Positions 1 through 42,452 of a stretch of 64,000 bases of DNA are shown one piece after another. The stretch covers positions 11,283-75,282 of the forward strand of contig WARV01000024.1 in the NCBI GenBank assembly GCA_013387205.1, given 5' to 3'. Origin of the DNA: Patescibacteria group bacterium. Lineage in GTDB: Bacteria > Patescibacteriota > Doudnabacteria > UBA920. How positions within the stretch are numbered: position 1 is the first letter of the stretch; each line of letters starts with the position of its first letter. The translations under genes and the position numbers were made by a program. Under the pieces are notes generated by a model. The model was not told the origin of the DNA. It did not search any database and saw only the letters and a program-made list of their open reading frames with translations.

Positions 1-30
1 CTGACACACGTCAGCTGGCAGTCACTTAAT

Positions 31-68
31 ATCCATAAGATTCCCATCTGGATGGGAATCTTATGGAT
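31..68. repeat. Perfect palindromic hairpin (core GATGGGAATCTT), paralog at 16477-16515
   Basis: atccataagattcccatc/gatgggaatcttatggat, an 18-bp stem. It sits downstream of the rlmH stop, so it is probably a bidirectional terminator-like hairpin. Confidence 0.6.
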
Positions 69-81
69 ATTTTTATAAAGA

Positions 82-552
82 TTATTTATGATATTCTTTT
101 CCGCTTAGAATTGTGCACGCGCGGTATAATTGTTCTTCCAAAACTACTCTGGCCATATTATGAGGGAAAGTGAGAGGGGATAGGGAAACAGTGTAATTAC
201 TGTATTGCTTTAAAGATTGATGCAGGCCAATTCCGCTGCCCAAAACAAAAACAACTTCTTTGCCAAGCCCGCCAATGCGCTGTAAAAAATTAGAGAAATC
301 TTTGGAACCGCGCAGCGTTCCTTTTTCTTCAAGCAGAATAACAACCCCGTCTTGCGGCAATTGTTTGATGATTTTTTCGGCCTCCTGGAGCTTAATTTTT
401 TCCAAATCTTCATTTTTTCCGTAACCGATTTCCGGAATTTCCACAATCTTTATTTTGGCAAAAGGAGATAAGCGCTTTAAATATTCCGCTTCCAAAGCTT
501 TATAAGCCTGTTCTTTGAATTTTCCAAGCGCGATGATTTTTATTTTGAACAT
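82..552 (-). CDS. rlmH: 23S rRNA (pseudouridine1915-N3)-methyltransferase RlmH (SPOUT family)
   Basis: 156 aa. The length and the C-terminal LSPLTFPHNMARVVLEEQLYRA..HPYH motif are characteristic of RlmH/YbeA. Confidence 0.85.
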   Translation of the reverse strand: MFKIKIIALGKFKEQAYKALEAEYLKRLSPFAKIKIVEIPEIGYGKNEDLEKIKLQEAEKIIKQLPQDGVVILLEEKGTLRGSKDFSNFLQRIGGLGKEVVFVLGSGIGLHQSLKQYSNYTVSLSPLTFPHNMARVVLEEQLYRACTILSGKEYHK

Positions 553-560
553 GTAGATAT

Positions 561-662
561 ATAATCCTAATAACCCGAATTATTATCCAAATGCCCCAAA
601 TCCATCCTAATGGCCCCATTCATATTCGGGGCATTTGGATGAATTCGTAGATTCGGATTATG
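561..662. mobile_element. MITE-like palindromic repeat family A, copy 1 (ATAATCCTAATGCCCCGAAT ... ATTCGGATTATG)
   Basis: Shares terminal inverted repeats and an internal GCCCCAAA/CATTTGGAT core with copies at 3473-3562, 12538-12625 and 28076-28187. Confidence 0.75.
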
Positions 663-764
663 TAATGGTATTTACTACTTTATCATAATTCGCTAAAATA
701 TAACAGCAGAAATAAATTAAAACCAAGTACCCAAGGCCTGCCCTGCGAAGCCTTGGCGAAGCAG

Positions 765-838
765 GGGCCCGTAGTAAAGTGGCATTACGCGGCATTCGCA
801 TTGCTGAGGCGGGGGTTCGATTCCCCCCGGGTCCACCA
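765..838 (+). tRNA. tRNA-Ala (anticodon CGC)
   Basis: Cloverleaf parsed by hand. Acceptor is GGGCCCG/CGGGTCC with the G3:U70 Ala identity pair. D stem is GTAA/TTAC. Anticodon stem is CGGCA/TGCTG with loop TTCGCAT. T arm is GGGGG-TTCGATT-CCCCC. Discriminator is A, and CCA is encoded. Confidence 0.85.
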
Positions 839-841
839 AAA

Positions 842-869
842 ACCACCGAGTATTGCTCGGTGGTTTTTG
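842..869 (+). terminator. Rho-independent terminator after tRNA-Ala
   Basis: CCACCGAG-tattg-CTCGGTGG hairpin followed by TTTTTG. Confidence 0.75.
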
Positions 870-962
870 TATTTGATGATATAATTTAAGCAAACATTTT
901 GAATTATCGTACTCTTATTCGCGCGAATATGCGCATGGTGACATTATCACGAGGCTAAGATT

Positions 963-1199
963 ATGTTTTACTTTTATATTTTAAAATGCAAAGATGGGAC
1001 GCTTTATAGCGGGATTACGAACGATTTGGAAAAAAGGGGAAAGGCGCATAATGCCGGCAAAGGATCCAAATATGTCTGGGCGCACGGCGGGGGAAAAATG
1101 GTTTACAGCGAAAGGTTCCGCTCAAAATCCAAAGCCTTAAAACGGGAAGCTCAAGTGAAAAAAATTTCGCGGGCAGAAAAACTCAAGCTGATAAAATAA
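963..1199 (+). CDS. GIY-YIG nuclease family small protein
   Basis: 78 aa, MFYFYILKCKDGTLYSGITNDLEKRGKAHN..: the GIY...YIG motifs and conserved R/E of UPF0213-like GIY-YIG proteins. Confidence 0.85.
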   Translation: MFYFYILKCKDGTLYSGITNDLEKRGKAHNAGKGSKYVWAHGGGKMVYSERFRSKSKALKREAQVKKISRAEKLKLIK

Positions 1200-1200
1200 A

Positions 1201-1240
1201 ACTACACTTTTTCACGGCCGTGAAAAAGTGTAGTTTTATT
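1201..1240. terminator. Bidirectional terminator hairpin
   Basis: ACTACACTTTTTCACGG/CCGTGAAAAAGTGTAGT perfect stem followed by TTTTATT. It lies between the convergent GIY-YIG and DedA genes. Confidence 0.7.
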
Positions 1241-1247
1241 ATTGATA

Positions 1248-1817
1248 TCACAAAGTTTTCTTGAGGTGCTTGGCAGCCAGTATTTCTATTGTAATAATAA
1301 CGCCCACGAAAATTAAAATAAAAAATTCCGCGTACTTGAAATAGTGCTTTAATAAAACATAAGAAGCACTAAACGCAAACCCAAAAAATCCGATAATTAC
1401 CATCCAAATCAGCACCACCCACAGGGCTGTTTTTAAATATTGCCTAAAGGGAACCTTAAGCATCCCGGCCCTGGCCAAAATAGCACGATGCAAGCCGTAA
1501 ACAAATTTAGAAACCATGAGCGTGCGGAACAATTTTTCAAAAAAATGCCTGTCTAAAATTCCAACAGCATTATTGGTAAATCGGGAAATTTTCTTAAACC
1601 TGTTTATGTTTAAGCCAATCCAATACCACAGCAATTCTTCCAAATACGCGCCGCTTAAAACGGCAAAAAATGCAGGAGCGAAACTTAAAGTTCCCTGGGA
1701 AACCAAAAAACAGGCGGTTAAAAGCGTTAAAGTGGCCTCGAAAAACATCCCCAAAAAAAGCGAAAGATAAAGCCAGGCTCTAACATCCTGATTTTTAAGA
1801 ATTTCAAAAAAATCCAT
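1248..1817 (-). CDS. DedA/VTT-domain (SNARE-associated) family membrane protein
   Basis: 189 aa, multi-pass hydrophobic, with DedA-like motifs (..GAYLEELLWYWIG..; F..K..R.....A.....R). Confidence 0.6.
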   Translation of the reverse strand: MDFFEILKNQDVRAWLYLSLFLGMFFEATLTLLTACFLVSQGTLSFAPAFFAVLSGAYLEELLWYWIGLNINRFKKISRFTNNAVGILDRHFFEKLFRTLMVSKFVYGLHRAILARAGMLKVPFRQYLKTALWVVLIWMVIIGFFGFAFSASYVLLKHYFKYAEFFILIFVGVIITIEILAAKHLKKTL

Positions 1818-1843
1818 AGGTAACTATATTATAGCAAAATAAA

Positions 1844-1937
1844 CCCCGCTCTTTCTTAAAGTGGATAATCCACCGCTATCCATCAATTAATGTTTGACGA
1901 ATAGGCAGCGAATTATCTATATGAAGAAAGGGCGGGG
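1844..1937. repeat. Inverted-repeat element (CCCCGCTCTTTCT ... AGAAAGGGCGGGG) flanking the HTH-murA 3' side
   Basis: Arms at 1844-1856 and 1925-1937. A paralogous arm pair lies at 3654-3667 / 3737-3749, on the other flank of the same gene. Confidence 0.6.
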
Positions 1938-1945
1938 CAGTCCTT

Positions 1946-3469
1946 TTAAAAGCTATGGAGATTTTCTATCTTGGCTCCCAGCTTTTTCAGGCGGTTCACC
2001 AAGTCTTCGTAGCCGCGATTTATGGAATAGACATTGCGCAAAACTGACGTACCTTTGGCTGCCAGCATGGCAATTAAAATTATGGCTGCCGGCCGCAAAG
2101 CCGGAGGACAAATAATTTCTGCTGGTTTAAATTCGCTGGGGCCTTCCACAAAAACCCTGTGGGGATCGGCCAAAATAATATTGGCGCGAAGCTTGGTTAA
2201 TTCCATATAATAGATAGCCCGATTTTCATAAACCCAGTCATGGATTAAAGTGGTGCCCGTGGCTTTGGCGGCAATCGGCACGAAGAAGGGAAGGTTGTCT
2301 ATGTTCAAACCGGGGTAGGGCAGGGGATGGATTTTTTCCTCTAAGGCCAAAAGGCGCGATGGATAAGTTTTTATATCGGCCAAGTTTACGTGCCCGTTCA
2401 AGCCTTTGTATTTTTTCAAAATTTTATATTTAAAACCCATCTTTTCCAGTTTCAACAATTCCACTTCCAAAAAATATATCGGGCATCTTTCAATAGTAAT
2501 AGAAGAATCGGTAGTGGCGGCCAAAGACAAAAATAACATTGACTCAATCGGGTCTTCGCTCAAATAGTAACTGGTCGGATGGTTGATATCAGGCTTGCCG
2601 TACACAGTCAGTGTAGACGTGCCAATGCCTTCGATTTTTACGCCTAAGGCAGAAAGGAAATGGCACAAATCCTGTACCATGTAATTTGAAGAGGCAAACT
2701 TGATAACTGTCTTGCCGGGAATTTTACTGGCAGCCATAAGCGCGTTTTCCGTAACCGTATCGCCCATTTCATAAAGCGGGATTTCCGCAGCAGATAATTT
2801 TTCCACACTGACTTCATAATGGTCGTGGGTGGTGTTTATTTTAACTCCCAAATTTTCCAAAGCGAACAAGTGCGGACGCACGGTCCTGGCACCAAGTTTG
2901 CATCCGCCGGCCAAAGGCAGGGAAAAACGCTTAAATAAATGGATTAGCGGGCCAAGAAGCATGAGCACGCTCCTGGTCTTAACCGCTGCTTCAGCATCAA
3001 GCCTGCTTAAATCAAGTTTTTTTGGAGGATTCAACTCCAAATCCGGACCAACCCATTTTATGGCCACCCCTATACTGGTTAGCACTTCCACCAGGCGATG
3101 AACTTCTTCTATGCGAGGCACATTTTTTAAGGTGGTTTTTCCGGAATTAAGCAAGGAAGCGCAAAGTAAAGCCACAGCCGCGTTCTTGGATGTGTTAGTA
3201 GTGACTTTTCCGGACAATTTATGGCCGCCCTGAATTCTAAAGTTCACAGACTGGTCAGCCAAAGTGATAATTTCACGGTTTAAGACGCTGGAGATTTTAC
3301 TAAGCATCTCTGTGCTGAAGTTCTGCTGGCCTTTTTCCATCCTGGCCACTGCGCTTTGCGAAGTTTTCAAGGCTTTGGCGAATTCACCCTGGGTTAAGCC
3401 TTTTAACTCTCTTAACTCCGAAATGAATTTTCCTATTTTTTGCTGTTCTTGGATTGAATTATTTTTCAT
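1946..3469 (-). CDS. murA: UDP-N-acetylglucosamine 1-carboxyvinyltransferase (MurA) with an N-terminal XRE-type helix-turn-helix domain fused
   Basis: 507 aa. Residues 1-70 are a Cro/C1-type HTH (IGKFISELRELKGLTQGEFAKAL..SQSAVARMEKGQ). The rest is full-length MurA (FRIQGGHKLSGKVTTNTSKNAAVALL..). Confidence 0.85.
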   Translation of the reverse strand: MKNNSIQEQQKIGKFISELRELKGLTQGEFAKALKTSQSAVARMEKGQQNFSTEMLSKISSVLNREIITLADQSVNFRIQGGHKLSGKVTTNTSKNAAVALLCASLLNSGKTTLKNVPRIEEVHRLVEVLTSIGVAIKWVGPDLELNPPKKLDLSRLDAEAAVKTRSVLMLLGPLIHLFKRFSLPLAGGCKLGARTVRPHLFALENLGVKINTTHDHYEVSVEKLSAAEIPLYEMGDTVTENALMAASKIPGKTVIKFASSNYMVQDLCHFLSALGVKIEGIGTSTLTVYGKPDINHPTSYYLSEDPIESMLFLSLAATTDSSITIERCPIYFLEVELLKLEKMGFKYKILKKYKGLNGHVNLADIKTYPSRLLALEEKIHPLPYPGLNIDNLPFFVPIAAKATGTTLIHDWVYENRAIYYMELTKLRANIILADPHRVFVEGPSEFKPAEIICPPALRPAAIILIAMLAAKGTSVLRNVYSINRGYEDLVNRLKKLGAKIENLHSF

Positions 3470-3472
3470 TTT

Positions 3473-3562
3473 ATAATCCTAATGCCCCGAATTTTTATCC
3501 GAATGCCCCAAATGAGTCCTGTTTCGGGTCATTTGGATAGGATTCGGATAATTCGAATTATG
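3473..3562. mobile_element. MITE-like repeat family A, copy 2
   Basis: ATAATCCTAATGCCCCGAATTTTTATCCGAATGCCCCAAA...TTTCGGGTCATTTGGATAGGATTCGGATAATTCGAATTATG. Confidence 0.75.
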
Positions 3563-3653
3563 TTTATATCACATATGAGATAACAATAATAATTTACCAA
3601 TTCCAGCAGCTTTGGTCAATACAATAATCCACAATTTATATCATATATGACAA

Positions 3654-3800
3654 ATCCCGCTCTTTCTCCTTCTAAAAAAACAACAAAGAAACATGCATTG
3701 CTTTAATCAGCGCGGTAAAAAAATATTTACAATGAAAGAAAGGGCGGGATGACAAAACCCCGCCCTGAGCAAACCCGAATGGGTTGAAGGGCGGGGGTAG
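3654..3800. repeat. Inverted-repeat element (TCCCGCTCTTTCT ... AGAAAGGGCGGGA, plus extra GGGCGGG arms) flanking the HTH-murA 5' side
   Basis: Paralog of 1844-1937. Additional AAAACCCCGCCCTGAGC and GAAGGGCGGGGG arms lie downstream. Confidence 0.55.
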
Positions 3801-3826
3801 TAAAACCTTAAGTTAAATTGGTGTGT

Positions 3827-4051
3827 TTAGAAATGCAAAATTTTATCAAACCAATTTTCCAAATAATGTGTTTGCAAATTGGTATAATAAATAACCAACA
3901 CACCTGCCAAATATATTACATTTAAAGCCAATACCCTAAGCAGGTCATGCTTAATTACGCGGTATTCCGCGGCATGGTTTAAATACGCATTGGATGTTTT
4001 TTCCGGACTGCCGGATGAAATTTGCTGTTGTTTCTTGTGCTTTTTGCTCAT
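3827..4051 (-). CDS. Hypothetical small protein, one predicted TM helix
   Basis: 74 aa with a basic N-terminus and hydrophobic core. It occupies the position where rpsE would normally follow rplR. Confidence 0.4.
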   Translation of the reverse strand: MSKKHKKQQQISSGSPEKTSNAYLNHAAEYRVIKHDLLRVLALNVIYLAGVLVIYYTNLQTHYLENWFDKILHF

Positions 4052-4172
4052 ATACGAATTTATTGATACTAATATACGAATTAATGCTAATGATACTAAT
4101 GGCTACTAATGCGTACTAAGAAAGAATTAGTTATACATTCGTTTCATTAGTATTCATTGGTAGATTGGTATC
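4052..4172. mobile_element. MITE-like repeat family H, copy 1 (ACGAATT...CTAATGCGTACTAAG...ATTAGT...)
   Basis: Paralogs at 28445-28568 and 47916-48039 share a near-identical AATGCGTACTAAGA(A/G)AGAATTAGTT core. It fills the whole rplR-downstream spacer. Confidence 0.7.
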
Positions 4173-4179
4173 TTTATTG

Positions 4180-4536
4180 TTAAAACTTAAGTCCGCCTTC
4201 CCTGGCCCCTTCAGCCAAAGCTTTTACCCGGCCATGGTACGCGTATCCGCCGCGGTCAAAAACTACGGTTTCAACGCTTTTCTCTTTGGCTTTTTTGGCA
4301 ACCAGCTTGCCGACTTCGGAAGCAATCTCCGACTTTTTGGCTTTGGATTTAATCTCCATGCTGGAAGCGGCTGCTAAAGTCTTACCGCTCTGGTCGTCGA
4401 TCACCTGGGCATAAATATGGCTGTTGGCCCTAAAAACCGATAATCTCGGCCTCTGGCTGGTGCCGCTAACTATACTGCGGACCCTGGCGTGCCTTCTGGT
4501 TCTTTTAATAATTTTGGCTGCGTTGGAATTTTTCAT
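4180..4536 (-). CDS. rplR: 50S ribosomal protein L18
   Basis: 118 aa, [43 protein letters not shown]. Confidence 0.95.
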
Positions 4537-4568: not shown

Positions 4569-5123
4569 TTATTTGCCGCCTCCGACGACCTTAACAACCT
4601 TACCGGCTTTCCTGACAATGGTTTCATCCGCGTACTTGATGCCTTTGCCTTTGTAAGGTTCCGGCTTCTTGAGTTCCCTGATTTCTGCCGCAAACTGCCC
4701 GACTCTCTGCTTGTCCGCGCCGCTGACAGTAATAACGTTCTTATCTACCGCAACCGTTAGGTCTTTCGGCACCAAAACTTCCACCGGATGGGAAAAACCC
4801 AGGCTCATGGTCAACTTGCCGGCAGCTGCCGCAACCTTGAATCCTACGCCATTGACTTCCAATTTCTTTTCGTAACCTTTGGTAACGCCTTCGATTAAGT
4901 TAAAAATCAAGGACCTGAACAAGCCCCACAAGGCTTTTTCTTTCTTATCGTCCTTCTTTTTTACGTCCACCAAAATTTCTTTTTCCGAAACAGCAACTTC
5001 AACCTTAGGATGGATAAGCAAAGACAAGGAGCCCTTAGGCCCGGTAACGTTCAAAGACGAATCTTTCTTTTCGACTTTGACCCCGGATGGGATGATTACT
5101 GGTTTTTTTCCTATGCGTGACAT
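4569..5123 (-). CDS. rplF: 50S ribosomal protein L6
   Basis: 184 aa, MSRIGKKPVIIPSGVKV. Confidence 0.95.
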   Translation of the reverse strand: MSRIGKKPVIIPSGVKVEKKDSSLNVTGPKGSLSLLIHPKVEVAVSEKEILVDVKKKDDKKEKALWGLFRSLIFNLIEGVTKGYEKKLEVNGVGFKVAAAAGKLTMSLGFSHPVEVLVPKDLTVAVDKNVITVSGADKQRVGQFAAEIRELKKPEPYKGKGIKYADETIVRKAGKVVKVVGGGK

Positions 5124-6622: not shown

Positions 6623-6707
6623 AAAATTAGCTTTTAGTTGATAGCTGATAGCTTTTAGGCCTTAATAATTTTATCCTAATGCCTATAAGCTATCAGCTAA
6701 TACCTAG

Positions 6708-7958: not shown

Positions 7959-7960
7959 AG

Positions 7961-8090
7961 ATTTACTTCGTAAATTTTCTACTAAATACTAATTGATACT
8001 AAATGTACTAAATCTTATCCGAGTATACTTAATTGATATCACCGCTGGTATATAGCTTTAGTATATTTCGTATATTTTAGTATTTAGTAG
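7961..8090. mobile_element. MITE-like repeat family B, copy 1 (..CTACTAAATACTAA ... TTAGTATTTAGTAG)
   Basis: Terminal IRs plus a shared 5' leader AGATTTACTTCGTAAATTTTCTACTAAATAC that is identical to copy 3 at 22847. It fills the rpmC-rplP spacer and abuts the L29 start codon. Confidence 0.75.
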
Positions 8091-8095
8091 AGATG

Positions 8096-8506: not shown

Positions 8507-8509
8507 GAT

Positions 8510-8640
8510 AGTAAAATTATTCTAATTATTCTAATTATTCTAATTGACCTAAGTAATGTCTAATAATCTAATGCTTTGGGAATTGGGATTTGTTTAGAAT
8601 AATTAGGTTAATTAGGAATTAGGTTAATTTACAAACTCTG
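8510..8640. repeat. Palindromic spacer element (TTCTAATTATTCTAATT... / ...AATTAGGTTAATTAGGAATTAGG)
   Basis: Tandem TTCTAATTA units on the left mirror AATTAGG units on the right. It fills the rpsC-rplP spacer. Confidence 0.55.
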
Positions 8641-8641
8641 G

Positions 8642-9989: not shown

Positions 9990-10086
9990 TTGAACAAAAT
10001 TTAAAAAATTAAATAAAATTGAACATAATTATAACTGCAGCTTATTTTTGTCTTTTATGTCAATTTTGTCATTTTTGTCATTCCCC
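9990..10086. repeat. Family C spacer element with phased 9-bp TTTTTGTCA/TGTCA direct repeats
   Basis: TAAATTAATTGAACAAAATTTAAA...ATGTCAATTTTGTCATTTTTGTCATTCC. It is about 90% identical to 10425-10528 and its repeats are shared with 38795-38865. Confidence 0.7.
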
Positions 10087-10419
10087 TTACTTCTTCTCCG
10101 GTTCCTTGGCTGCCTGCAGCTTGGCTTTTTCGGCCGCTGCCTTGGCTGCTTCCTGCTCTTTGGCCATCTTACCGCCATGCCTGATGAATTTCCTGGTTAG
10201 GGCGAATTCGCCGAGCTTGTGGCCGACCATATTTTCGGTAACGAATACCGGCATGTGGGCCCTGCCGTTATGGACCAAAAAGGTAAAGCCTACCATCTCA
10301 GGGGCGATTGCGGAATCGCGCGACCAGGTTTTAATCTGGTCTTTTCCCGGACGTCCGGCCAAAACCTTTTTCATTAATTTTGGATCAATAAATGGTCCTT
10401 TTTTTAGCGATCTAGACAT
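10087..10419 (-). CDS. rpsS: 30S ribosomal protein S19 with Ala/Lys-rich C-terminal tail
   Basis: 110 aa. Confidence 0.95.
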
Positions 10420-10424
10420 AAATT

Positions 10425-10528
10425 AATTGAGCAAAATTTAAATAATTAAATAAAATTGAACATAATTGATACTGCAACTCTTGCTTATATTTTTATCATT
10501 TATGTCAATTTTGTCATTTTTGTCAATT
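10425..10528. repeat. Family C spacer element, copy 2
   Basis: See 9990-10086. Confidence 0.7.
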
Positions 10529-11365
10529 CTACTTGCTTCTCCTCTTAACTATCATCCTATTGCTATATTTCTTCTTGGTTCTGGTCTTAACGCCAAGTGC
10601 GTGTCTGCCCCAAGGAGTTTTTGGATATTTCAAACCAATCGGGTTATGGCCTTCTCCACCACCATGAGGGTGATCAACAGGGTTCATCACTTTACCTCTG
10701 ACAGACGGCCTCCAGCCCATTAATCTCTTTCTTCCGGCCTTGCCTATCCGTACGTTCATCCAGTCGGAGTTCGCAACCTGGCCAATAGATGCCAAAGCAG
10801 TTTCCTTGATTTTCCTAATTTCGCCGCTGGGCATTTTAAGCAAAGCATATCCGGCTTCAATGTTCTGCAAAGTGGCGTAGCTTCCGGCGCTTCTGGAAAT
10901 CCTGCCGCCCTGTCCCGGTATCAATTCAATGTCATGGATCAAGGTTCCAACTGGTATCCTGCTTATAGGCAGCCTGTTGCCTGGCTTGATTTCTGCGCTT
11001 TCAGAATAAATAACAGTATCGCCGACTTTCAACCCTTCCGGAGCCAAAACGTATCTCTTAGTCCCGTCTTTGTAAGCGACTAAAGAAATAAATGCGCTGC
11101 GGGTCGGATCGTATTCCAAAGTCTGAACCTTGGCCGGAATATCTTTCTTGTCGATTCTGGAAAAATCAGTGATTCTCAAAACTCTCCTGAATCCCCCGCC
11201 CTGGTGGCGGACGGTAATTTTGCCGCTGTTATTGCGGCCAGCCTGCTTGGTTTTTGCCACGAGCAAATGGCGCGGAGTCTGGACATTCTTCTTTAAAACA
11301 GAATAATCCGTAACACTGTGAATACGCCTTCCTGCAGATGTTGGTTTGTAAATTTTTACGCTCAT
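10529..11365 (-). CDS. rplB: 50S ribosomal protein L2
   Basis: 278 aa. Confidence 0.95.
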   Translation of the reverse strand: MSVKIYKPTSAGRRIHSVTDYSVLKKNVQTPRHLLVAKTKQAGRNNSGKITVRHQGGGFRRVLRITDFSRIDKKDIPAKVQTLEYDPTRSAFISLVAYKDGTKRYVLAPEGLKVGDTVIYSESAEIKPGNRLPISRIPVGTLIHDIELIPGQGGRISRSAGSYATLQNIEAGYALLKMPSGEIRKIKETALASIGQVANSDWMNVRIGKAGRKRLMGWRPSVRGKVMNPVDHPHGGGEGHNPIGLKYPKTPWGRHALGVKTRTKKKYSNRMIVKRRSK

Positions 11366-11378
11366 ATGATTCGCTTTT

Positions 11379-11488
11379 CTACTAAATACTAATTGATACT
11401 AATTGTACTAAATATCATCAAATATACTTAATCGATCTCACTACTGGTATATGCTTTAGTATCTTTCGTATATTTTAGTATTTAGCAG
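11379..11488. mobile_element. MITE-like repeat family B, copy 2
   Basis: CTACTAAATACTAATTGATACTAATTGTACTAAATA...TTAGTATTTAGCAG in the rplB-rplW spacer. Confidence 0.75.
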
Positions 11489-11495
11489 AGATTGA

Positions 11496-11852
11496 TTAAA
11501 TAGTTTCTACCGTTCCTTCTATCTTGTCTCCGTCTTTTAAGGTTACCACGGCTTTCTTAAAACCGCTGGTCTTGCCGCTGACTCTGCCGTAATTCTTGGT
11601 TTTGCCTTTGATGTTTATCATGTTTACCATGACAACTTTGACCTGGTACGCGGTTTCCACTGCTTTCTTTACGGAAATCTTATTGGCAGACTTGGCTACT
11701 TTAAAGACATACTTGTTGCCGGCAACTAATTTTCCGGCTTTCTCGGAAATCCTGGGCTGAACCAAAACGTTTTGAAGCACCTTAGGAAGCTTTCCGGATT
11801 TAGGCTTATCAGCCTGCTTGCTGCCTTCTTCAGTTTTGTTAAAAATTGCCAT
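11496..11852 (-). CDS. rplW: 50S ribosomal protein L23 (N-terminally extended)
   Basis: 118 aa. Confidence 0.9.
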   Translation of the reverse strand: MAIFNKTEEGSKQADKPKSGKLPKVLQNVLVQPRISEKAGKLVAGNKYVFKVAKSANKISVKKAVETAYQVKVVMVNMINIKGKTKNYGRVSGKTSGFKKAVVTLKDGDKIEGTVETI

Positions 11853-11878
11853 ACTGTTTAAACCCTAAAAATTAAATG

Positions 11879-12520
11879 TTACTTTAAATAAGTTTTTTCT
11901 ATGACTTTCAAGCTGTCCTGCAACACTACAACTGAATCAGCCTTGAGCACTTCAACTACATTCAAGCTATTTGCCAGCTTCGGGGTAATTCCGGGAATGT
12001 TCCTGGAAGCCCTCTGCAGATTTTCGTCCTTTTTCGGCATCAAAAACATCTGTTTTTTGCCAATCTCTTTGACGGCTTTTTTCAAACCGGAAAGGATTTT
12101 GACGAACTCTTTAGTCTTAGGCTGGTCCAAAACCATTTCATTGATGACAATAAACTTGCCACTCTTGGCTTTGTCGGAAAGGGACATAAACAGCGCTTTG
12201 GTCTTAGCTTTCTTGTTAAGCTTTAATTCCCAGTTCTGGTTTGCTCTCGGACCGAAAGTGATACCGCCATGCCTCCAAATCGGGCTGCGGATAGATCCGG
12301 CTCTGGCGCGGCCAGTGCCTTTTTGCTTCCACGGCTTCTTGCCGCCGCCGCTGACTTCGCCGCGGGTCTTGGTGTGGGATGTTCCCTGGCGGGAGTTTAA
12401 CCTGGAAATCCTGACAGCTTCGGCCAGCAAATGCATCTGCGGTTTGACGTCAAAAATCTTGGAGTTCAATTCAATCTCGCCGACCACTTCTGCTTTTTGG
12501 TTATAGACATTTACTTTCAT
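11879..12520 (-). CDS. rplD: 50S ribosomal protein L4
   Basis: 213 aa. Confidence 0.95.
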   Translation of the reverse strand: MKVNVYNQKAEVVGEIELNSKIFDVKPQMHLLAEAVRISRLNSRQGTSHTKTRGEVSGGGKKPWKQKGTGRARAGSIRSPIWRHGGITFGPRANQNWELKLNKKAKTKALFMSLSDKAKSGKFIVINEMVLDQPKTKEFVKILSGLKKAVKEIGKKQMFLMPKKDENLQRASRNIPGITPKLANSLNVVEVLKADSVVVLQDSLKVIEKTYLK

Positions 12521-12537
12521 AAAAAAATATTGGTTAT

Positions 12538-12625
12538 ATAATCCTAATGCCCCGAATTCTTATCCGAATGCCCCAAACGGTTCCCTTTTCGGGTCATTTG
12601 GATGAATTCGTAGATTCGGATTATG
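12538..12625. mobile_element. MITE-like repeat family A, copy 3 (inside the S10 operon, rplC-rplD spacer)
   Basis: ATAATCCTAATGCCCCGAATTCTTATCCGAATGCCCCAAACGG...CGGGTCATTTGGATGAATTCGTAGATTCGGATTATG. Confidence 0.8.
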
Positions 12626-13324
12626 CTATTTTTTCTTCTTCTCTTCCTTTACTTCTGTTAATTTGACCAAAGGTTTTACTTTTCCGGTAGAGACAACCTT
12701 AATGGTGGCGTTGCGGTGTCCGGGAACTGCACCTTTAACTGTTATTAAATTCCTTGCTGGATCAACTTCCACAACCTGGAGATTCTTAACCGTAACTTGC
12801 TGGTTGCCCATATGGCCGGCCATTCTCAAGCCTTTGCGGACATGCTGCGGGAAACGCTGACCGATGGAACCGACGCTCCTGGGCTTGTTATGCCCGTGGC
12901 TGGCCGGGAAACCGGCGAAACCGTGGCGCTTAATGGCTCCGGCAAAACCGCGTCCTTTGCTTACTCCGATAACATCTACAACTTCGCCTATTTGGAAACC
13001 TGATAAATCTAATTTCTGGCCCTTTTGATAAGCACTGCTGTCATCAACCCTGAATTCAGCCAAAGCGGCAAAAGACCCTAATTCTTTCAAGTGTCCTTTT
13101 ATGGACTTGTTGGCTTTGACTTTTTTGCCCACGCCGACCTGTACTGCAGAATACTTGTCTTTGCCATCCTTGGCTTTAACCTGGGTGACAATCATTGACG
13201 AGCCCTTAATGACCGTAACTGGGATAACTGTCCCGCTTTGGTCGAAGTACTGGCTCATATTCAGTTTCTTTCCGATAAGAAAATTCATATTTTCCGTTAC
13301 TGTTTCCATTGCTCCGTTTAACAT
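12626..13324 (-). CDS. rplC: 50S ribosomal protein L3
   Basis: 232 aa. Alternative in-frame starts at 13309 and 13288 are possible. Confidence 0.9.
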   Translation of the reverse strand: MLNGAMETVTENMNFLIGKKLNMSQYFDQSGTVIPVTVIKGSSMIVTQVKAKDGKDKYSAVQVGVGKKVKANKSIKGHLKELGSFAALAEFRVDDSSAYQKGQKLDLSGFQIGEVVDVIGVSKGRGFAGAIKRHGFAGFPASHGHNKPRSVGSIGQRFPQHVRKGLRMAGHMGNQQVTVKNLQVVEVDPARNLITVKGAVPGHRNATIKVVSTGKVKPLVKLTEVKEEKKKK

Positions 13325-13384
13325 CTAAAGATATTAACCGTAGATAGGATTACTTAAATAATTAAATACTTTTAGCGTCTCTAT

Positions 13385-13409
13385 CCGCCTTCGCATAAAG
13401 CTTCGGCGG
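13385..13409. repeat. Repeat family K hairpin (CCGCC-TTCGCATAAAGCTTC-GGCGG)
   Basis: Paralogs at 18133-18155, 19236-19270 (rc), 19745-19775, 54866-54885 (rc) and 54941-54965 (rc). Confidence 0.6.
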
Positions 13410-13439
13410 ATTGTTCACTATGTATAAATTAATGTGAAC

Positions 13440-13465
13440 AAAAAAAACGGGTCTGATTTACCCGT
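13440..13465 (-). terminator. Terminator-like hairpin plus U8 tract between rpsJ and rplC
   Basis: The minus strand reads ACGGGTAAATCAGACCCGT followed by TTTTTTTT. Confidence 0.55.
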
Positions 13466-13577
13466 AATAAACTTAAATGGAAAACCATTTAAACTTTTAG
13501 GTAAATCGTTCTCTGGAATCTTGAGCTCTTGAAAGCTTTGGGATAACAGAACTAATCTACAGACATTTTAAGTTTTA

Positions 13578-13904
13578 CTAGCTCATCTTAATTTCCACAT
13601 CCACGCCGGCTGGAAGGTTCAGGTTGGTCAAAGCATCAATAGTCTTAGGAGTTGCTTCTAAAATATCAATTAATCTCTTGTGGACCCTCATTTCAAACTG
13701 TTCGCGGCTGTCTTTGTGCACGAAAGTAGAACGCAACACGGTATATTTGGTGTGTTCTGTAGGCAGCGGGATTGGTCCGGAGATTGTTGCGCCAGTCCTT
13801 TTGGCAGTTTCAACAATCTGCTTAGAGCTCTGGTCAATCAACTTATGATCGTATGCTCTAATCTTGATGCGTATTCTTGGCGGCTTATTTGCGTCCTTGT
13901 CCAT
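13578..13904 (-). CDS. rpsJ: 30S ribosomal protein S10
   Basis: 108 aa. Confidence 0.95.
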
Positions 13905-14117
13905 TTAGTTGTTGAAGGAATGAAGGTTAAGAATAAGTTATCCACCGTTTTTTCGGTGAAAATTGAATTACTTAAAATTTAAATCAAGTAGTTTAAATTT
14001 GAAATAATCCAAAAATAGGCTGTTTTTATATTCATTTAGCCACTTGGCATATATTACACTAGTGCAGTAATTTTGTCAAATCTTTAAGAAAAAGATTTTG
14101 CAATAAATTCCGCTCTA

Positions 14118-14146
14118 TTGACAAATAACTCAATGTGTGCTATAAT
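14118..14146 (+). promoter_or_regulatory. Consensus sigma-70-type promoter (TTGACA - 17 bp - TATAAT, with TGn)
   Basis: TTGACA at 14118-14123, a 17-nt spacer ending in TGC, and TATAAT at 14141-14146. Confidence 0.5.
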
Positions 14147-14328
14147 ATTTTATCAAAAATAATTTTGAAAATTAAAAGCCCCCTTATTTTAGAGCTTTTT
14201 AACACTAACAATATCAAACATATTAATGACCTATTCTTTATTAGTTTTATCCATCACTAATTCAATAAATTACATCATCACTGCAATTAATACTGCTGGC
14301 AGGTAAAACTCGCAATAAAAAAGCGTCT

Positions 14329-14364
14329 TAAGAGCTATCTGGAAAGATAGCTCTTTTAATTTTT
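14329..14364 (+). terminator. Hairpin plus T-tract (terminator/attenuator-like) in the leader upstream of the 98-aa ORF
   Basis: AAGAGCTATC-tggaaa-GATAGCTCTT followed by TTAATTTTTT. Confidence 0.5.
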
Positions 14365-14464
14365 TAAGGAGGATTCTCTTAGGGAAGTTTGCGCAGATTT
14401 TTTGATACGCAGACTCCCCTAAGAGAACTTGTTTTAACCTTAGGCGGAATGGGAGAACCCAAGC

Positions 14465-14761
14465 ATGAAGATTAATGTAATGATTCTGGAAGCTGCGCTG
14501 GCAGGCCTTGAAAAAAGAAAACGCAAAGTCGAGGAGCAGATTACTGAAGTAGAAAATCTCCTTCTCGCAAATCCTCCGAAAAAGCCGATGTCTATTGCAA
14601 CCCATGCCAGGGCCGGCAAGCGCCATATAAACGCTGAAAGCCGCGAACGAATCGCAGAGGGACAAAAAAAACGCTGGAACAAATGGCGCAAACAGCAGAA
14701 GAAGGCCAAAAGAGCGCCAACCTTGCAGACTAAAACTTCTGCGGACAGAAAAAACAGGTAA
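14465..14761 (+). CDS. Hypothetical highly basic small protein (K/R-rich C-terminus)
   Basis: 98 aa. GGGAGA SD 8 nt upstream. The overlapping minus-strand ORFs have implausible composition. Confidence 0.5.
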   Translation: MKINVMILEAALAGLEKRKRKVEEQITEVENLLLANPPKKPMSIATHARAGKRHINAESRERIAEGQKKRWNKWRKQQKKAKRAPTLQTKTSADRKNR

Positions 14762-14941
14762 GATGCAGGCGGCATACCGCCAAAAGTTCACAAGACGGCG
14801 CAAAGCTTTGCGCCGTCTTTCATTTTGCCCATTAATATTATTATTTCGATATTATTCTAAGTCCTGGTGATCCTTAAAATACTATACAGTATTGTGGTTT
14901 TGCCGAAATTTGATGCCGCAACAAAACTCTGACATTACTTC

Positions 14942-14975
14942 ACTGCTTCGAAGCAGTGAAGTAATGTCAAGAAAA
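14942..14975. repeat. Hairpin repeat family L (CATTACTTCACTGCTTCGAAGCAGTGAAGTAATG)
   Basis: Perfect palindrome. Paralogs at 25039-25072 and 25574-25602. Confidence 0.65.
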
Positions 14976-14980
14976 TTAAA

Positions 14981-15009
14981 ACCCCTCCCGGAAGGGAGGG
15001 GTTTTTCTA
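14981..15009 (-). terminator. Bidirectional rho-independent terminator downstream of tuf
   Basis: AAAACCCCTCCC-ggaa-GGGAGGGGTTTTT. Confidence 0.8.
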
Positions 15010-15035
15010 AACGCTAAGCGCTGTACGCTAAACGC

Positions 15036-16226
<1,191 letters not shown>

Positions 16227-16476
16227 GAGAAGTGTTTCCTTTCTTTCGTCCCGAGAAACCCTAAGCCTTGCGTCTATCGATTTGGCGCAAGGCCAAGGGT
16301 TTTTCTCTTTTTTTCCTAACCTGCCATGTCCCAAATCCGCCAACTGGCGGATAGGACGGTCGGATCGGAATCCAGGGACGATTATGCCACTTTTAGGTGG
16401 CAATATTAATTGTTATACGCATGTTAAATTTTAAAGAATTTTTCCCATCCTGTCAAACACCATAAAATAACAAAAC

Positions 16477-16515
16477 GATGGGAATCTTCTGGGGCAGCCC
16501 CAGAAGATTCCCATC
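16477..16515. repeat. Palindromic hairpin (GATGGGAATCTTCTGGGGC/GCCCCAGAAGATTCCCATC)
   Basis: 19-bp perfect stem with the same GATGGGAATCTT core as 31-68. It lies just downstream of the lipoprotein gene stop. Confidence 0.6.
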
Positions 16516-16526
16516 AAGGAAACTCA

Positions 16527-17636
16527 TTATTGTCCTGACGGCTTTATTAATTCCGTTGATACGTTTAAAGACTTTACAATGTCGGTTAAATTAGACTCAG
16601 GAGTTTTTTGCCAAACAACCACATAATTTCCCCCGGTTTGCGGCGAGAAAATAATCCACTGCTCGCTTCCCTTGGCAAAACTTTGCATGTCTTTCGCATT
16701 CTGGATTTCAATTTTATTTTCAGCCTTTTTGCAATCGGGACAAGGCTTAACGGCATTCCAATATTCCAAAGCACTGGAAGCCCCAATGGCATCGTTGCTG
16801 TAAAACCCGATCTTCAACAAATTATTTTTGCTTTTGTCGCTCAGGATTAAATAATTATTTTGTTTAGTGATTATATATTTGTCTTTTGGATAATTTAGGC
16901 TGTAATGGAACCGGGTTACATATCCTTCGTAATTGGCGTCATGCGTCCCGGAGTAATTCGCCTGCTTTGAATCAGAGATGAACTTAAACGTGCCGAGTAC
17001 CTGATCCAGCCTGTTCCAAACTTCCGTCTGGTTAAATTCTTTAATCGTTCCTTTAGGGTAATTGTCGATGTTGGTATTAGCAACGCGCTGCATTATTTCG
17101 TAGCAGGTGTTATTATGGAAACTCCTGTAAACTTTAACACTGTCAAAATGCCCTAAGGCTGCACCACCGCCAGTGGCCGAATGGAAATCAGTATTATTGA
17201 TTTTTACAATGCCGGCGTCTTTTTGAGCTTCGTTGGTTGAAACGTTAAAGTTATAGCACTGGCTTTGGGTATTTAAATCTTTCAAGATATTTACCGAAAC
17301 TCCGGCGCTGTCAAAATTCGTGCCTGAATATTTATCCTTGGTTAAATACGCACATGCAGCCGTTGTGTCATCACAAGCCGGAATATAAGAAAGCGGGCGG
17401 ATTTTGCTTATATCCGTGTTAAACCCAAAATCATTTGGGTACTGGATAGAAAACCCATACTTAGCAGGACTGGTATAAGTGTTCCAGCCATTCTTGTTGC
17501 CTTGGGGAAGATTTTGGGAATTATCACTGGTTAATGTGGATTGATTAGTCTGTTTTGGCTCGTTTTTTTGCGCCTGCTGATTACATGAAGCAGCAAGCAG
17601 TACTATCGCTGAAACCAAAAATAGATATTTCTTCAT
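16527..17636 (-). CDS. Hypothetical secreted protein / putative lipoprotein
   Basis: 369 aa. N-terminal signal peptide MKKYLFLVSAIVLLAASC with a lipobox-like AASC, then an N/Q/S/T-rich mature region. Confidence 0.5.
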   Translation of the reverse strand: MKKYLFLVSAIVLLAASCNQQAQKNEPKQTNQSTLTSDNSQNLPQGNKNGWNTYTSPAKYGFSIQYPNDFGFNTDISKIRPLSYIPACDDTTAACAYLTKDKYSGTNFDSAGVSVNILKDLNTQSQCYNFNVSTNEAQKDAGIVKINNTDFHSATGGGAALGHFDSVKVYRSFHNNTCYEIMQRVANTNIDNYPKGTIKEFNQTEVWNRLDQVLGTFKFISDSKQANYSGTHDANYEGYVTRFHYSLNYPKDKYIITKQNNYLILSDKSKNNLLKIGFYSNDAIGASSALEYWNAVKPCPDCKKAENKIEIQNAKDMQSFAKGSEQWIIFSPQTGGNYVVVWQKTPESNLTDIVKSLNVSTELIKPSGQ

Positions 17637-17669
17637 AAAATCGCCGATCTAATTATTTGAGCTATCCTG

Positions 17670-17743
17670 GACCCCGGATCAAGCCCGGGGTGGAAACCAA
17701 GGGTACCATCCCGGAATTTTTCAGGGCTGTGAAAAATATCCGG
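17670..17743. repeat. 74-bp direct repeat, left copy, flanking a GIY-YIG gene
   Basis: CAAGCCCGGGGTGGAAACCAAGGGTACCATCCCGGAATTTTTCAGGGCTGTGAAAAATATCCGGGATCCAGTAC, about 80% identical to 18161-18234. Confidence 0.7.
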
Positions 17744-17792
17744 GATCCAGTACTTATGCTTTAATCCTGAATCAAGTTCAGGACAGGCTCTA

Positions 17793-18086
17793 TTAAATAA
17801 TTTTATTATATAAATCTTCCCAATTAGGATTTATCTTCTCAATTAATTCCAATTTCCATTTTCGATACCATCTTTTTAACTGTTTTTCCCGCTTTATGGC
17901 TTCTTCCCTGTCTTCAAAGACTTCATAATAAACCAATCGATGAACCTGGTATTCTTGAGTAAATCCTTTGACAATGTTGTTTTTATGGGTAAAAACCCTG
18001 TTTACAAGATTATTTGTAAAACCGGTATACAAAGTCCCATTCCTATGACTGGCCAGCATATAAACATAATACACTTTATTATCCAT
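17793..18086 (-). CDS. GIY-YIG nuclease family small protein
   Basis: MDNKVYYVYMLASHRNGTLYTGFTNNLVNRVFTHKNN.. The upstream in-frame extension of the ORF runs into the repeat and is probably not translated. Confidence 0.8.
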   Translation of the reverse strand: MDNKVYYVYMLASHRNGTLYTGFTNNLVNRVFTHKNNIVKGFTQEYQVHRLVYYEVFEDREEAIKREKQLKRWYRKWKLELIEKINPNWEDLYNKII

Positions 18087-18120
18087 TGTTTTTGTATTTG
18101 TTTCTGGCTTTTTCCTGGAC

Positions 18121-18300
18121 CTCGGGTCCCATCCTTCGCATAAAGCTACGGCGGGCACAGCAAGCCCGGGGTGGAAACCGAGGACACCATCCAGGAATTT
18201 CGAGTGTATCGGAGAAATATCCGGGATCCAGTACATATTCGCATTGTATAATTCAGCCACGAAGTGGCCCCTTCGAGGCGTACTTATCGGCGACGTTTCT
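18121..18300. repeat. Composite repeat block (family K hairpin, right 74-bp direct repeat at 18161-18234, family G module)
   Basis: CCTTCGCATAAAGCTACGGCGG, then the CAAGCCCGGGGTGGAAACC..CCGGGATCCAGTAC repeat, then CAGCCACGAAGTGGCCCCTTCGAGGCG. Confidence 0.7.
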
Positions 18301-18305
18301 GCGGT

Positions 18306-18701
18306 CTAGAAATCTTCAAACTCCACTTTCGGGCCTTCGAAGTTGAAACTAGTGTCTATAACTTCTTCTTTAACAATTACTTCTTCGCGCAGGTCCTGAA
18401 AGCGTGAAGGAAAAACCTGGCGGGTAGATTGCACTTGAGGCGCAACTGTTTTCCTAAATGGAGTTTCCACTACAGGTTCAATAGTATCTTTTTCCGTCAA
18501 TTGCGCTTTAATAATTTCTTTGTTGATTTTTTCAATATCTTCCGCCTGCTGGACAACCTTCTGCTGCAATTTGCCGAGCAGTAATTTTTGATATTCGTTA
18601 ATAGGCAATATCACCAGCTTAGCATCCCCTGCCTCATCCATAACAAAAAACTTCCCTCCGTCAGCCTTTGCCAGATTGATTAAATCTTGTAATTTTGACA
18701 T
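18306..18701 (-). CDS. Hypothetical protein with Phd/YefM-antitoxin-like N-terminal domain
   Basis: 131 aa. N-terminus LINLAKADGGKFFVMDEAGDAKLVILPINEYQKLL resembles the YefM/Phd fold. It has an acidic C-terminal extension. Confidence 0.45.
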   Translation of the reverse strand: MSKLQDLINLAKADGGKFFVMDEAGDAKLVILPINEYQKLLLGKLQQKVVQQAEDIEKINKEIIKAQLTEKDTIEPVVETPFRKTVAPQVQSTRQVFPSRFQDLREEVIVKEEVIDTSFNFEGPKVEFEDF

Positions 18702-18707
18702 ATTATT

Positions 18708-18783
18708 TTTCCACTAATTCACGAATTTACACAAATCACACTAAATACCAGTTTAGTGATATTAGTGAATTCGTGGATAAGTA
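18708..18783. mobile_element. MITE-like repeat family I, copy 1 (CACTAATTCACGAATT ... AATTCGTG)
   Basis: About 85% identical to 23413-23493. Both copies abut a start codon (the YefM-like ORF here, rpsL there). Confidence 0.7.
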
Positions 18784-18868
18784 ATTTTTGTATTCCCATT
18801 ATACCCCCATTCCCTCAGCTTTACAATCCCCTACAGATTTGGTATTCTAGGATGTTTAGGAGGAAAAA

Positions 18869-19138
18869 ATGGAAAGCAATGAAGAGCAGATTCTGCAAAG
18901 CTTACGGGAAAGGACCAAGGAAACACATGCTTCCCAGCGAGTCACTTTGCTCCTGGTCTATGGCCACAAAGTGAAAGGAGAACTGTATCATGTGGGCGAA
19001 AAAGACATCACCCTGCGTGTCACCCCGTGGTGGCGATCCCTGTTCGGGCTGGGTGCCATATTCTTCCACTGCCACCCGAGCAAGATTGTGGGCTATGCTG
19101 CCCAGTTCATCGACCGTAGCGGCTCTGTTCTCGACTGA
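18869..19138 (+). CDS. Hypothetical small protein
   Basis: 89 aa with a strong SD (AGGAGG, 7 nt upstream). Its GC content is higher than the flanks. Confidence 0.5.
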   Translation: MESNEEQILQSLRERTKETHASQRVTLLLVYGHKVKGELYHVGEKDITLRVTPWWRSLFGLGAIFFHCHPSKIVGYAAQFIDRSGSVLD

Positions 19139-19235
19139 CTACTGGTTATTAGCCTACGATTACCTTAACACGGCCCCCGCCGGAATTACCGGCGGTGGGC
19201 TTTTTCTTTTTGCCTTGTCACGCCGAAGCCTTGCC

Positions 19236-19272
19236 TTGCCCGCCATAGCTTTACGCGAAGGCTGGGGCGAAG
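19236..19272. repeat. Family K repeat (reverse orientation)
   Basis: CCGCCATAGCTTTACGCGAAGGCTGGGGCGAAGGCGG. Confidence 0.55.
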
Positions 19273-19349
19273 GCGGATGCTTTACAATTCCCTGCCCTTT
19301 TGTTATTCTAACCATCGCAATATGGTCTCAGACGAGAGGAGGAACATTA

Positions 19350-19595
19350 ATGGCAGGTTCCGTTATTTCTGCAGCCGTGCATTATGAATGCACAGATCCG
19401 AAAAAAGATAACTCTGGGTATCTAATCATGGTGCCGGTAGTTGAAGGCACCAATATCCCAGACGTCACCAAGACTGGCACAATTGTTGCAAAAAGAGAAT
19501 CCGGAGATATCACCGTAGAGGCAAGGATTCCAAACATCAATTACTGCCCGGAATGCGGTGCGCACATTCACGACGATCCGATACCGCGACGCTGA
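19350..19595 (+). CDS. Hypothetical small protein with C-terminal CPECG zinc-ribbon-like motif
   Basis: 81 aa. GAGGAGG SD 7 nt upstream of the ATG at 19350. Confidence 0.5.
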   Translation: MAGSVISAAVHYECTDPKKDNSGYLIMVPVVEGTNIPDVTKTGTIVAKRESGDITVEARIPNINYCPECGAHIHDDPIPRR

Positions 19596-19744
19596 ATTTC
19601 CTTTTGCCCTAACCGCCCAATCCCGACTTTTTGGGACAAGCGGTTCAGGGCTTTTCTTTTTGCTTGAATTACGTAATCTTTTTGTCATTGCGAGGAGACA
19701 AAGGGCTTTATCTTTGCCGACGAAGCAATCTTTTCATGATTAAG

Positions 19745-19915
19745 ATTGCTTTCACCTTCGCTAAAGCTACGGCGGACAAGTCGGCTGCACTCATAAGACA
19801 TCTAGCCAATTTTAAAGGGCCAACCGTTAGGTTGGCCCTTTCAACTTCAGCGATATATCCGCCACGAAGTGGCCCCTTTGGGGCGTTGCTATCCGCGAGT
19901 AATCCGCGGTACTAC
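19745..19915. repeat. Composite repeat block (family K plus family G modules) downstream of fusA
   Basis: CCTTCGCTAAAGCTACGGCGG ... CCGCCACGAAGTGGCCCCTTTGGGGCGTTGCTATCCGCGAGTAATCCGCGG. Confidence 0.65.
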
Positions 19916-28075: not shown

Positions 28076-28187
28076 CATAATCCGAATTACCCAAAAAATA
28101 TCCTAATAACCCGAAAACAAGACCAACCAAAGGTTGGTCTTGTTTATTTAGGGGCATTCGGATGCTAATTCGGGGCATTAGGATTAC
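28076..28187. mobile_element. MITE-like repeat family A, copy 4 (reverse orientation)
   Basis: CATAATCCGAATTACCC...GGGGCATTCGGATGCTAATTCGGGGCATTAGGATTAC. Confidence 0.75.
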
Positions 28188-28189
28188 AT

Positions 28190-28444: not shown

Positions 28445-28568
28445 AATTACGAATTATACTGACCAATCTACTAATGTAACGAATAAAGCGAATGACAACT
28501 AATGCGTACTAAGAGAGAATTAGTTGTCATTGGTTATTATTAGCATGAATTCGTTGATTGGTTAATCC
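28445..28568. mobile_element. MITE-like repeat family H, copy 2
   Basis: It fills the entire spacer between the MGMT start and the DUF3048 stop. Confidence 0.7.
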
Positions 28569-42033: not shown

Positions 42034-42086
42034 AATAGTATATTCATTATTTCCTCTCCCTTTAGGGAGAGGGTGGGGTGAGGGGG

Positions 42087-42452
42087 TCAATTTTTCAAAA
42101 ATTGATAAATTCTATTTAAAACCCCTTCTAAATTTTCATCTAAGTCATTATCCCAAAATCTTAAAACAATATATCCTTGATCTCTCAAAAGTTTATCTCT
42201 TAATGAATCGGTAATTTTTTTCTGAAGATGATGACTACCATCTAATTCAATGATTAATCTTTTTTTGATACAAATAAAATCAACTATAAAATTTCCAATC
42301 GGATACTGCCTTCTAAATTTAAAATCTTTAAACCTTCTATGTCGCAGAAGATACCATAATTTTTGTTCCCAAGGAGTTTGATTTATCCTTAACTTCCTGG
42401 CTGCTTGTATCAAATTTTGGTTTTCAATCCCCCTCATCCGTCCTCCGGCCAC
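42087..42452 (-). CDS. DUF559 (endonuclease-domain, Vsr-like fold) protein
   Basis: 121 aa, ..NQTPWEQKLWYLLRHRR..FKFRRQYPIGNFIVDFIC....IIELDGSHH....D..RD..L...GY.VLRFWDNDL. Flanked by CTCCCTttaGGGAGAG (42055-42070) and CTCCCTcaGGGAGAAGG (42455-42475) hairpins. Confidence 0.8.
   Translation of the reverse strand: MAGGRMRGIENQNLIQAARKLRINQTPWEQKLWYLLRHRRFKDFKFRRQYPIGNFIVDFICIKKRLIIELDGSHHLQKKITDSLRDKLLRDQGYIVLRFWDNDLDENLEGVLNRIYQFLKN

Follow-up and report, generated by a model that had tools for sequence, protein, structure and literature searches.

Does the spc operon of this genome truly end after rplR, or does the contig join stretches of DNA that lie apart in the organism? The window, by which we mean the whole stretch of 64,000 nucleotides analysed here, is part of a 94,945-nt contig of a Candidatus Doudnabacteria metagenome-assembled genome (MAG). 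Its minus strand carries the str part of the ribosomal-protein cluster (S12, S7, EF-G and EF-Tu) and the S10-spc part, which runs S10, L3, L4, L23, L2, S19, L22, S3, L16, L29, S17, L14, L24, L5, S14, S8, L6 and L18. From rpsJ to rplR this order is the same as in the canonical bacterial S10-spc cluster (...rplF-rplR-rpsE-(rpmD)-rplO-secY...). Pfam identifies L6, S8, S14 and L5 on the 5' side of L18, so that rplF and rpsH precede rplR as they do in the canonical operon. Unlike in that operon, however, rpsE is not found immediately 3' of rplR. The original prediction that the cluster ends in the contig after rplR, without rpsE, rplO or secY, is borne out by the Pfam gene order and by tblastn over the 64 kb: with queries taken from a relative (L006), S5, L15 and SecY were absent from the window and L18 was the sole match. 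The succession described for the DNA beyond L18, namely a 74-aa ORF, repeat copies, an HTH-MurA gene and a DedA gene, was also recovered by Pfam and by repeat comparison. The features on the two sides of the break are as follows.

4569–5123, minus strand: rplF (L6), the penultimate gene of the ribosomal block (Pfam Ribosomal_L6, E 2e-38); contig L001 matches its 3' part at 100% identity
4180–4536, minus strand: rplR (L18), the final ribosomal gene of the contig (Pfam Ribosomal_L18p, E 6.7e-45); L001 encodes the same protein, residue for residue
4052–4179, minus strand: 128-nt spacer that fills the interval between the L18 stop codon and the following start codon, an imperfect palindrome belonging to a dispersed repeat family
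4049–4051, minus strand: junction ATG, by pairwise alignment the start codon both of rpsE on L001 and of the window's ORF74; the L001 translation is the S5 N-terminus
3827–4051, minus strand: ORF74, a conserved small membrane protein of 74 aa with no Pfam match, which opens the other synteny block
3741–3766, minus strand: GC-rich hairpin with a T-run 3' of ORF74, terminator-like by consensus scan alone
3470–3600, minus strand: second palindromic repeat element, abutting the HTH-MurA start codon (repeat copies; fold z -2.5)
1946–3469, minus strand: HTH-MurA, a fusion of HTH_3 with an EPSP-synthase-fold (MurA-like) domain (Pfam HTH_3 and EPSP_synthase; 70–80% identity in relatives)
1248–1817, minus strand: membrane protein of the VTT/DedA family (Pfam VTT_dom at 28.3 bits, under the gathering score of 33.9); position kept in L088 and L111
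963–1199, plus strand: GIY-YIG domain protein (Pfam); position kept, on the opposite strand, in L088 and L111
765–838, plus strand: tRNA-Ala
82–552, minus strand: RlmH (SPOUT methyltransferase), at which the collinear block, as seen in the window, ends (Pfam SPOUT_MTase, E 8e-44); position kept in relatives

GC skew and GC3 skew, calculated per gene across the junction, were dominated by noise over 4 kb. The str operon is interrupted on this contig as well: the fusA-tuf gap of ~3.5 kb (16404–19911) holds a lipoprotein-like ORF without a Pfam match (16527–17636), a GIY-YIG-like ORF (17793–18260), a small acidic ORF (18306–18701) and GC-rich repeats.

The gene order to be expected after rplR in this lineage was taken from related genomes. 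A scan of GTDB with the S5 N-terminus returned at least 80 loci, nearly all of them labelled Candidatus Doudnabacteria, Patescibacteria or 'Saccharibacteria'. Among the matches listed, the best identity to the S5 N-terminus was 90%, and the window genome's own rpsE locus was not among these. It turned out that the order S8-L6-L18-S5 is present in every GTDB locus with upstream DNA among the matches listed (78/78), and it is found in two ENA contigs as well. The two S5 loci that come without upstream DNA, L024 and L040, are on contigs that start at, or within ~35 nt of, the rpsE start codon. Such starts fit assemblies that break in the L18–S5 spacer; their positions (1 in L024, 36 in L040) suggest that this repeat-bearing spacer breaks other assemblies of the lineage. 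The longer order L18-S5-L15-SecY was found in 74 of 82 related loci among the matches listed; of the remaining eight, contig ends truncate six, an insertion is present in one, and at one SecY had no match.

The string that the original prediction had expected downstream of L18, S5-(L30)-L15-SecY-Adk and on to L17, is therefore upheld for S5-L15-SecY, at the 74 of 82 loci just given, and not for the remainder as placed in L006. In that relative (10001–16028) the order is L18-S5-L15-SecY, L30 is missing from the S5–L15 interval, and secY is followed by a Zincin_1 gene and a gene for a T4SS coupling protein, L006 being the one relative inspected beyond secY. The genes adk-map-infA-rpmJ-rpsM-rpsK-rpsD-rpoA-rplQ are not contiguous with secY there. 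Compared with the canonical cluster, L006 is thus without rpmD and ends at secY rather than running on into adk-map-infA and the alpha operon. Because of this arrangement, it may be wrong to expect adk...rplQ immediately downstream in the lineage.

The DNA on the other side of the junction has a conserved gene order of its own. ORF74 is a small membrane protein that is genuinely conserved; its homologues, of 67–96 aa (mostly 67–74 aa), all begin with an invariant MSKKH. In each of the 42 contigs with enough upstream DNA (42/42), it leads the unit ORF74-HTH-MurA-(DedA)-(GIY-YIG, opposite strand)-RlmH. Upstream of ORF74, on the opposite strand, all 42 have DUF4446, bactofilin and a YegS-like kinase, with IF2 and RbfA further out; none of these 42 loci has L18, L6 or S5 near ORF74. 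Positions 1–4051 of the window proved collinear with the ORF74 block in comparison with L088 and L111. Since the MSKKH start is invariant in ORF74 homologues, the join in the window runs exactly from start codon to start codon. On the evidence of gene order and alignment, then, the window unites two conserved synteny blocks precisely at a start codon. We also considered a collapsed deletion between neighbouring blocks and rejected it, since no gene of the ORF74 block occurs within 10 kb of S5 at the listed S5 loci.

Some further features of this block can be recorded here. The HTH_3–MurA-like fusion, at 70–80% identity in L084, L086, L088, L111 and others, lies nearly always directly after ORF74, and the two form a stable Doudnabacteria gene pair; a few relatives are without HTH-MurA. 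Two perfect palindromes flank genes of the block in the window. One (28–71, with 21-nt arms and a 2-nt loop) lies just 3' of rlmH, less than 80 nt from the left edge of the window; the other (1195–1240, with 23-nt arms and no loop) separates GIY-YIG and DedA, two convergent genes. Both are probably bidirectional terminators.

The most telling comparison came from a look-up of the exact L18 protein, which led to one other contig, Logan SRR19769811_2950198 (L001, 999 nt). L001 matches the window from position 4860 to about 4031, and pairwise identity is 100% up to the ATG at 4051–4049, over ~810 nt. This stretch comprises the 3' end of rplF, rplR in full, the 128-nt spacer from end to end and the ATG itself. 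From the very next base there is no similarity between the two, and where the window has ORF74, L001 encodes the S5 N-terminus (63 residues). Set against the canonical cluster, then, the window contig stops after rplR, whereas L001 goes on to rpsE and the relatives to rpsE-rplO-secY. Because the non-coding spacer of L001 is identical and is then followed by S5, the population from which the window comes would appear to keep the canonical rplR-rpsE junction with the same non-coding DNA. L001 could represent a sister strain, with a source other than the reads of this MAG.

One point that weighs against a mis-join is the way L001 passes through the repeat. The Logan assembly graph, which we take to be built with k=31, carries L001 across the spacer unbroken. 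Either the exact stretch shared with a second copy is shorter than 31 nt, or that second copy received no coverage in this low-coverage run. One of the eight window proteins tested is complete in Logan, a literature search for the run SRR19769811 returned nothing, and an exact 26-mer from the junction side (the 3' end of the spacer) had no match in JGI metagenomes. The exact ORF74 and HTH-MurA proteins have no record outside the NCBI contig. Taken over the exact-protein look-ups and the JGI 26-mer, the L18–ORF74 junction has no second sighting in independent data.

We next turn to the spacer itself. Its predicted RNA fold has an energy between -23 and -25 kcal/mol, with z-scores around -3.6 to -3.9 (-23.2 kcal/mol at z -3.6 in one of the calculations), and two further members of its family are present in the window:

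28445–28568, minus strand: junction-family copy 2, reaching to the ATG of an MGMT-like ORF of 84 aa (76% identity; fold z -4.4)
47916–48039, minus strand: junction-family copy 3, ending at the ATG of a Nudix gene (76% identity; fold z -6.9)

All three copies span the whole interval between the preceding stop codon and the following ATG and share the conserved end ...AATTCGTA..TATG. The L18–ORF74 break thus falls on the 3' edge of one copy of a dispersed repeat. Being short, non-coding, multi-copy and palindromic, the junction spacer fits what is expected of a MITE/REP-like element. Family copies occur at other intergenic sites in Doudnabacteria (L051, L017, L070). In L094 a copy at 71% identity over 131 nt lies directly 5' of the ORF74 homologue and reaches to that gene's ATG. 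In a similar way, the L18–S5 spacer of L012 resembles the region upstream of ORF74 in L096. When the junction spacer, the regions upstream of ORF74 and the L18–S5 spacers are compared, the family copies are all ~70–76% alike, within genomes and between them. By analogy with these relatives, a family copy plausibly lies upstream of ORF74 in the window genome too. Such a copy would provide shared sequence for a wrong path through the assembly graph or for homologous recombination.

Other repeats speak to the origin of the two halves. The element at 3470–3600 is 90% identical, over 3469–3538, to 12534–12603 in the L3–L4 spacer, and it has further copies at 557–626 and, inverted, at 28148–28189; a second pair is formed by 625–679 and 12588–12642. 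Repeat families are thus common to both sides of the junction at 84–90% identity, and the distance to all relatives is about the same for either half. Since the families span the junction at this identity and the distances to relatives are alike, both halves can be assigned to one genome, and on the same grounds a cross-species chimera was rejected as unlikely.

A further question is where rpsE lies. Every window protein tested resides on one NCBI contig, the 94,945-nt one, and the exact L18 protein, too, is recorded on a single NCBI contig. A full-length S5 query retrieved P0084, a complete S5 of 167 aa that is known from NCBI only and is encoded on a separate contig of 41,617 nt; its residues 1–63 are identical to the S5 fragment of L001. 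Like the window proteins it is NCBI-only, and most likely it comes from the same assembly or MAG. Because P0084 on the 41,617-nt contig shares the L001 N-terminus, rpsE of this organism would exist on another contig. We also asked whether rpsE might be split or truncated in this lineage, as a first S5 search had yielded proteins of at most 111 aa. These are read-length fragments or nanopore frameshifts, and the idea was dropped: full-length S5 proteins of 166–169 aa are abundant. In two ENA contigs that we take for long-read (nanopore) assemblies (L002, 1455–2124; L003, 10001–10472), rpsE and its neighbours are fragmented by frameshifts, and many database entries of ~100 aa under the name 'S5' are such fragments and no split gene.

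Taken together, these observations make it probable that the L18–ORF74 junction is an intragenomic assembly mis-join at a repeat and not the gene order of the organism. The alternative raised beforehand, two contigs wrongly joined at a repeat copy, has thus become the best-supported reading and a likely one. In the true genome, ...rplF-rplR-[palindromic spacer]-rpsE-rplO-secY would lie apart from a second locus in which DUF4446 diverges from ORF74-HTH-murA-dedA...rlmH. Both rpsE and, probably, ORF74 would be preceded by a hairpin repeat of the same family ending exactly at the start codon. The assembler would have entered the repeat from rplR and left it on the wrong side, producing a contig that is right on either side of the ATG and wrong across it, with the rpsE-rplO-secY segment stranded on another contig. 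Of these steps, we infer the wrong join by the assembler and the presence, upstream of ORF74 in this genome, of a sufficiently similar repeat. A mis-join explains all of the observations: the canonical order of L001 in identical DNA, rpsE on another contig, a junction seen in none of the related loci, at least about 120 in number, and the placement of that junction at the edge of a repeat. The breakpoint that had been predicted within an invariant operon, mediated by repeats, is real in so far as the break does fall between two conserved blocks at a repeat copy. A genuine rearrangement is disfavoured by canonical L001, by rpsE lying elsewhere and by the fact that no relative has the junction.

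Among the alternatives, a very recent inversion at the level of the strain deserves the closest attention, although we regard it as rather unlikely. Recombination between inverted hairpin repeats, one before rpsE and the other before ORF74, would have placed ORF74-HTH-murA-dedA after rplR and left rpsE-rplO-secY divergent from DUF4446 and driven by what had been the ORF74 promoter; a co-occurring strain with the ancestral order would then be the source of L001. The contig does exist as deposited, both ORFs are intact at the junction, and the genome is rich in repeats of this kind, the family being present upstream of ORF74 in a relative as well. The orientations also fit (in the window L18 and ORF74 point the same way, and relatives have DUF4446 and ORF74 transcribed divergently), as does an rpsE on a different contig. 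Yet the ~810 nt at 100% identity to a contig of canonical order, non-coding spacer included, mean that any real event must be extremely recent. Moreover, rplR-rpsE is kept in every listed S5 locus with upstream DNA and the DUF4446|ORF74 arrangement in 42/42, which implies strong selection against a break. Assembly errors ignore selection; a real break must survive in an operon that is kept in every sampled relative. The junction has also gone without a second sighting, with the exact ORF74 and HTH-MurA proteins confined to NCBI and the 26-mer absent from JGI metagenomes.

The two other alternatives we consider very improbable even when taken jointly. A partial duplication, with two copies of rplF-rplR-spacer of which one precedes rpsE and the other ORF74, would reconcile L001 with the window and call for neither assembly error nor strain variation. 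It is nonetheless highly improbable: ribosomal-protein genes are seldom duplicated, NCBI records the exact L18 protein on one contig only, and no relative has a second L18 near ORF74. In addition, an identical flank would stop L001 at a branch after the ATG in a k=31 graph, whereas L001 continues. Still harder to credit is an old, fixed trait of the species, in which the spc operon truly ends after rplR and rpsE-secY moved away long ago. The contig itself is all that speaks for it, against the canonical junction of L001 in identical DNA, a junction with neither sequence decay nor a distinct spacer, and the integrity of both blocks in every relative.

The mis-join that we favour has the marks of repeat-induced chimeric contigs in short-read assemblies: a junction at a repeat edge, correct flanks, a contradicting assembly and the displaced genes elsewhere, all judged here from sequence alone. 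It differs in that the repeat copy at the second locus is known from a relative, L094, and not from the window genome. The elements themselves resemble REP/MITE-like palindromic repeats in being ~105–135 nt long, non-coding, imperfectly palindromic and multi-copy, in falling into several families and in being common to related genomes. They differ from these in filling stop-to-start spacers exactly, with the 3' end abutting the start codon.

This arrangement is general in the window. Long imperfect hairpins built of short repeated words fill most of the ribosomal-operon spacers that were folded, from stop codon to start codon. With their counterparts outside the operon, hairpin-filled spacers lie at 12521–12625, 11366–11495, 8507–8641, 7959–8095, 6623–6707, 4052–4179, 3470–3600, 28445–28568 and 47916–48039, with z between -2.5 and -6.9; in two other spacers folding is weak or absent (z -1.9 and +0.9). 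They belong to several families, and are intergenic in L012, L017, L051, L070, L094 and L096 too. A role in RNA processing or stability is possible, as is mobility. Repeat-like segments are also seen within genes. In leucyl-tRNA synthetase (38902–42090, minus strand, 1062 aa), such a segment, in frame, precedes a Ser_hydrolase/alpha-beta-hydrolase insert (PF06821, residues 434–616) located right after the editing domain. In an M24 peptidase (49627–50844, minus strand), an in-frame insert (about ...LRASAFDPFDSTQSRPEQSRTAERSNLITRERLPRHSAALVARNDKG...) divides the Pfam match in two and resembles the translation of GC-rich repeat elements found elsewhere in the window.

What would a real break mean? 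Two reports on Vibrio cholerae describe experiments in which the S10-spc-alpha locus was relocated and indicate that ribosomal-protein loci are movable, at a fitness cost (PMC4395360, PMC10127744). As described there, the whole locus was moved (PMC4395360, PMC10127744), whereas here the cut would be internal, between rplR and rpsE; the comparison bears on the window only if the break is real. That a Doudnabacteria strain has recently split rplR from rpsE by recombination between hairpin repeats abutting start codons is, in our estimate, unlikely. Were it true, this would be a rare cut within one of the most conserved gene strings of bacteria, and hairpin repeats would be able to rewire essential operons. 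The small membrane protein, HTH-MurA and DedA would be wired onto the end of a ribosomal-protein transcript, with rpsE-rplO-secY under a foreign promoter, and the 'stop-to-start' hairpin cassettes would take an active part in reshuffling the operons of CPR genomes.

As it stands, the finding is one of caution. A clean-looking MAG contig can hide an intragenomic mis-join at a 128-nt repeat, and inferences about gene order, or about a "missing ribosomal gene", that are drawn from such contigs need validation at the level of reads. The more interesting biology lies less in the break than in the repeat cassettes that fill the stop-to-start spacers of the operon.
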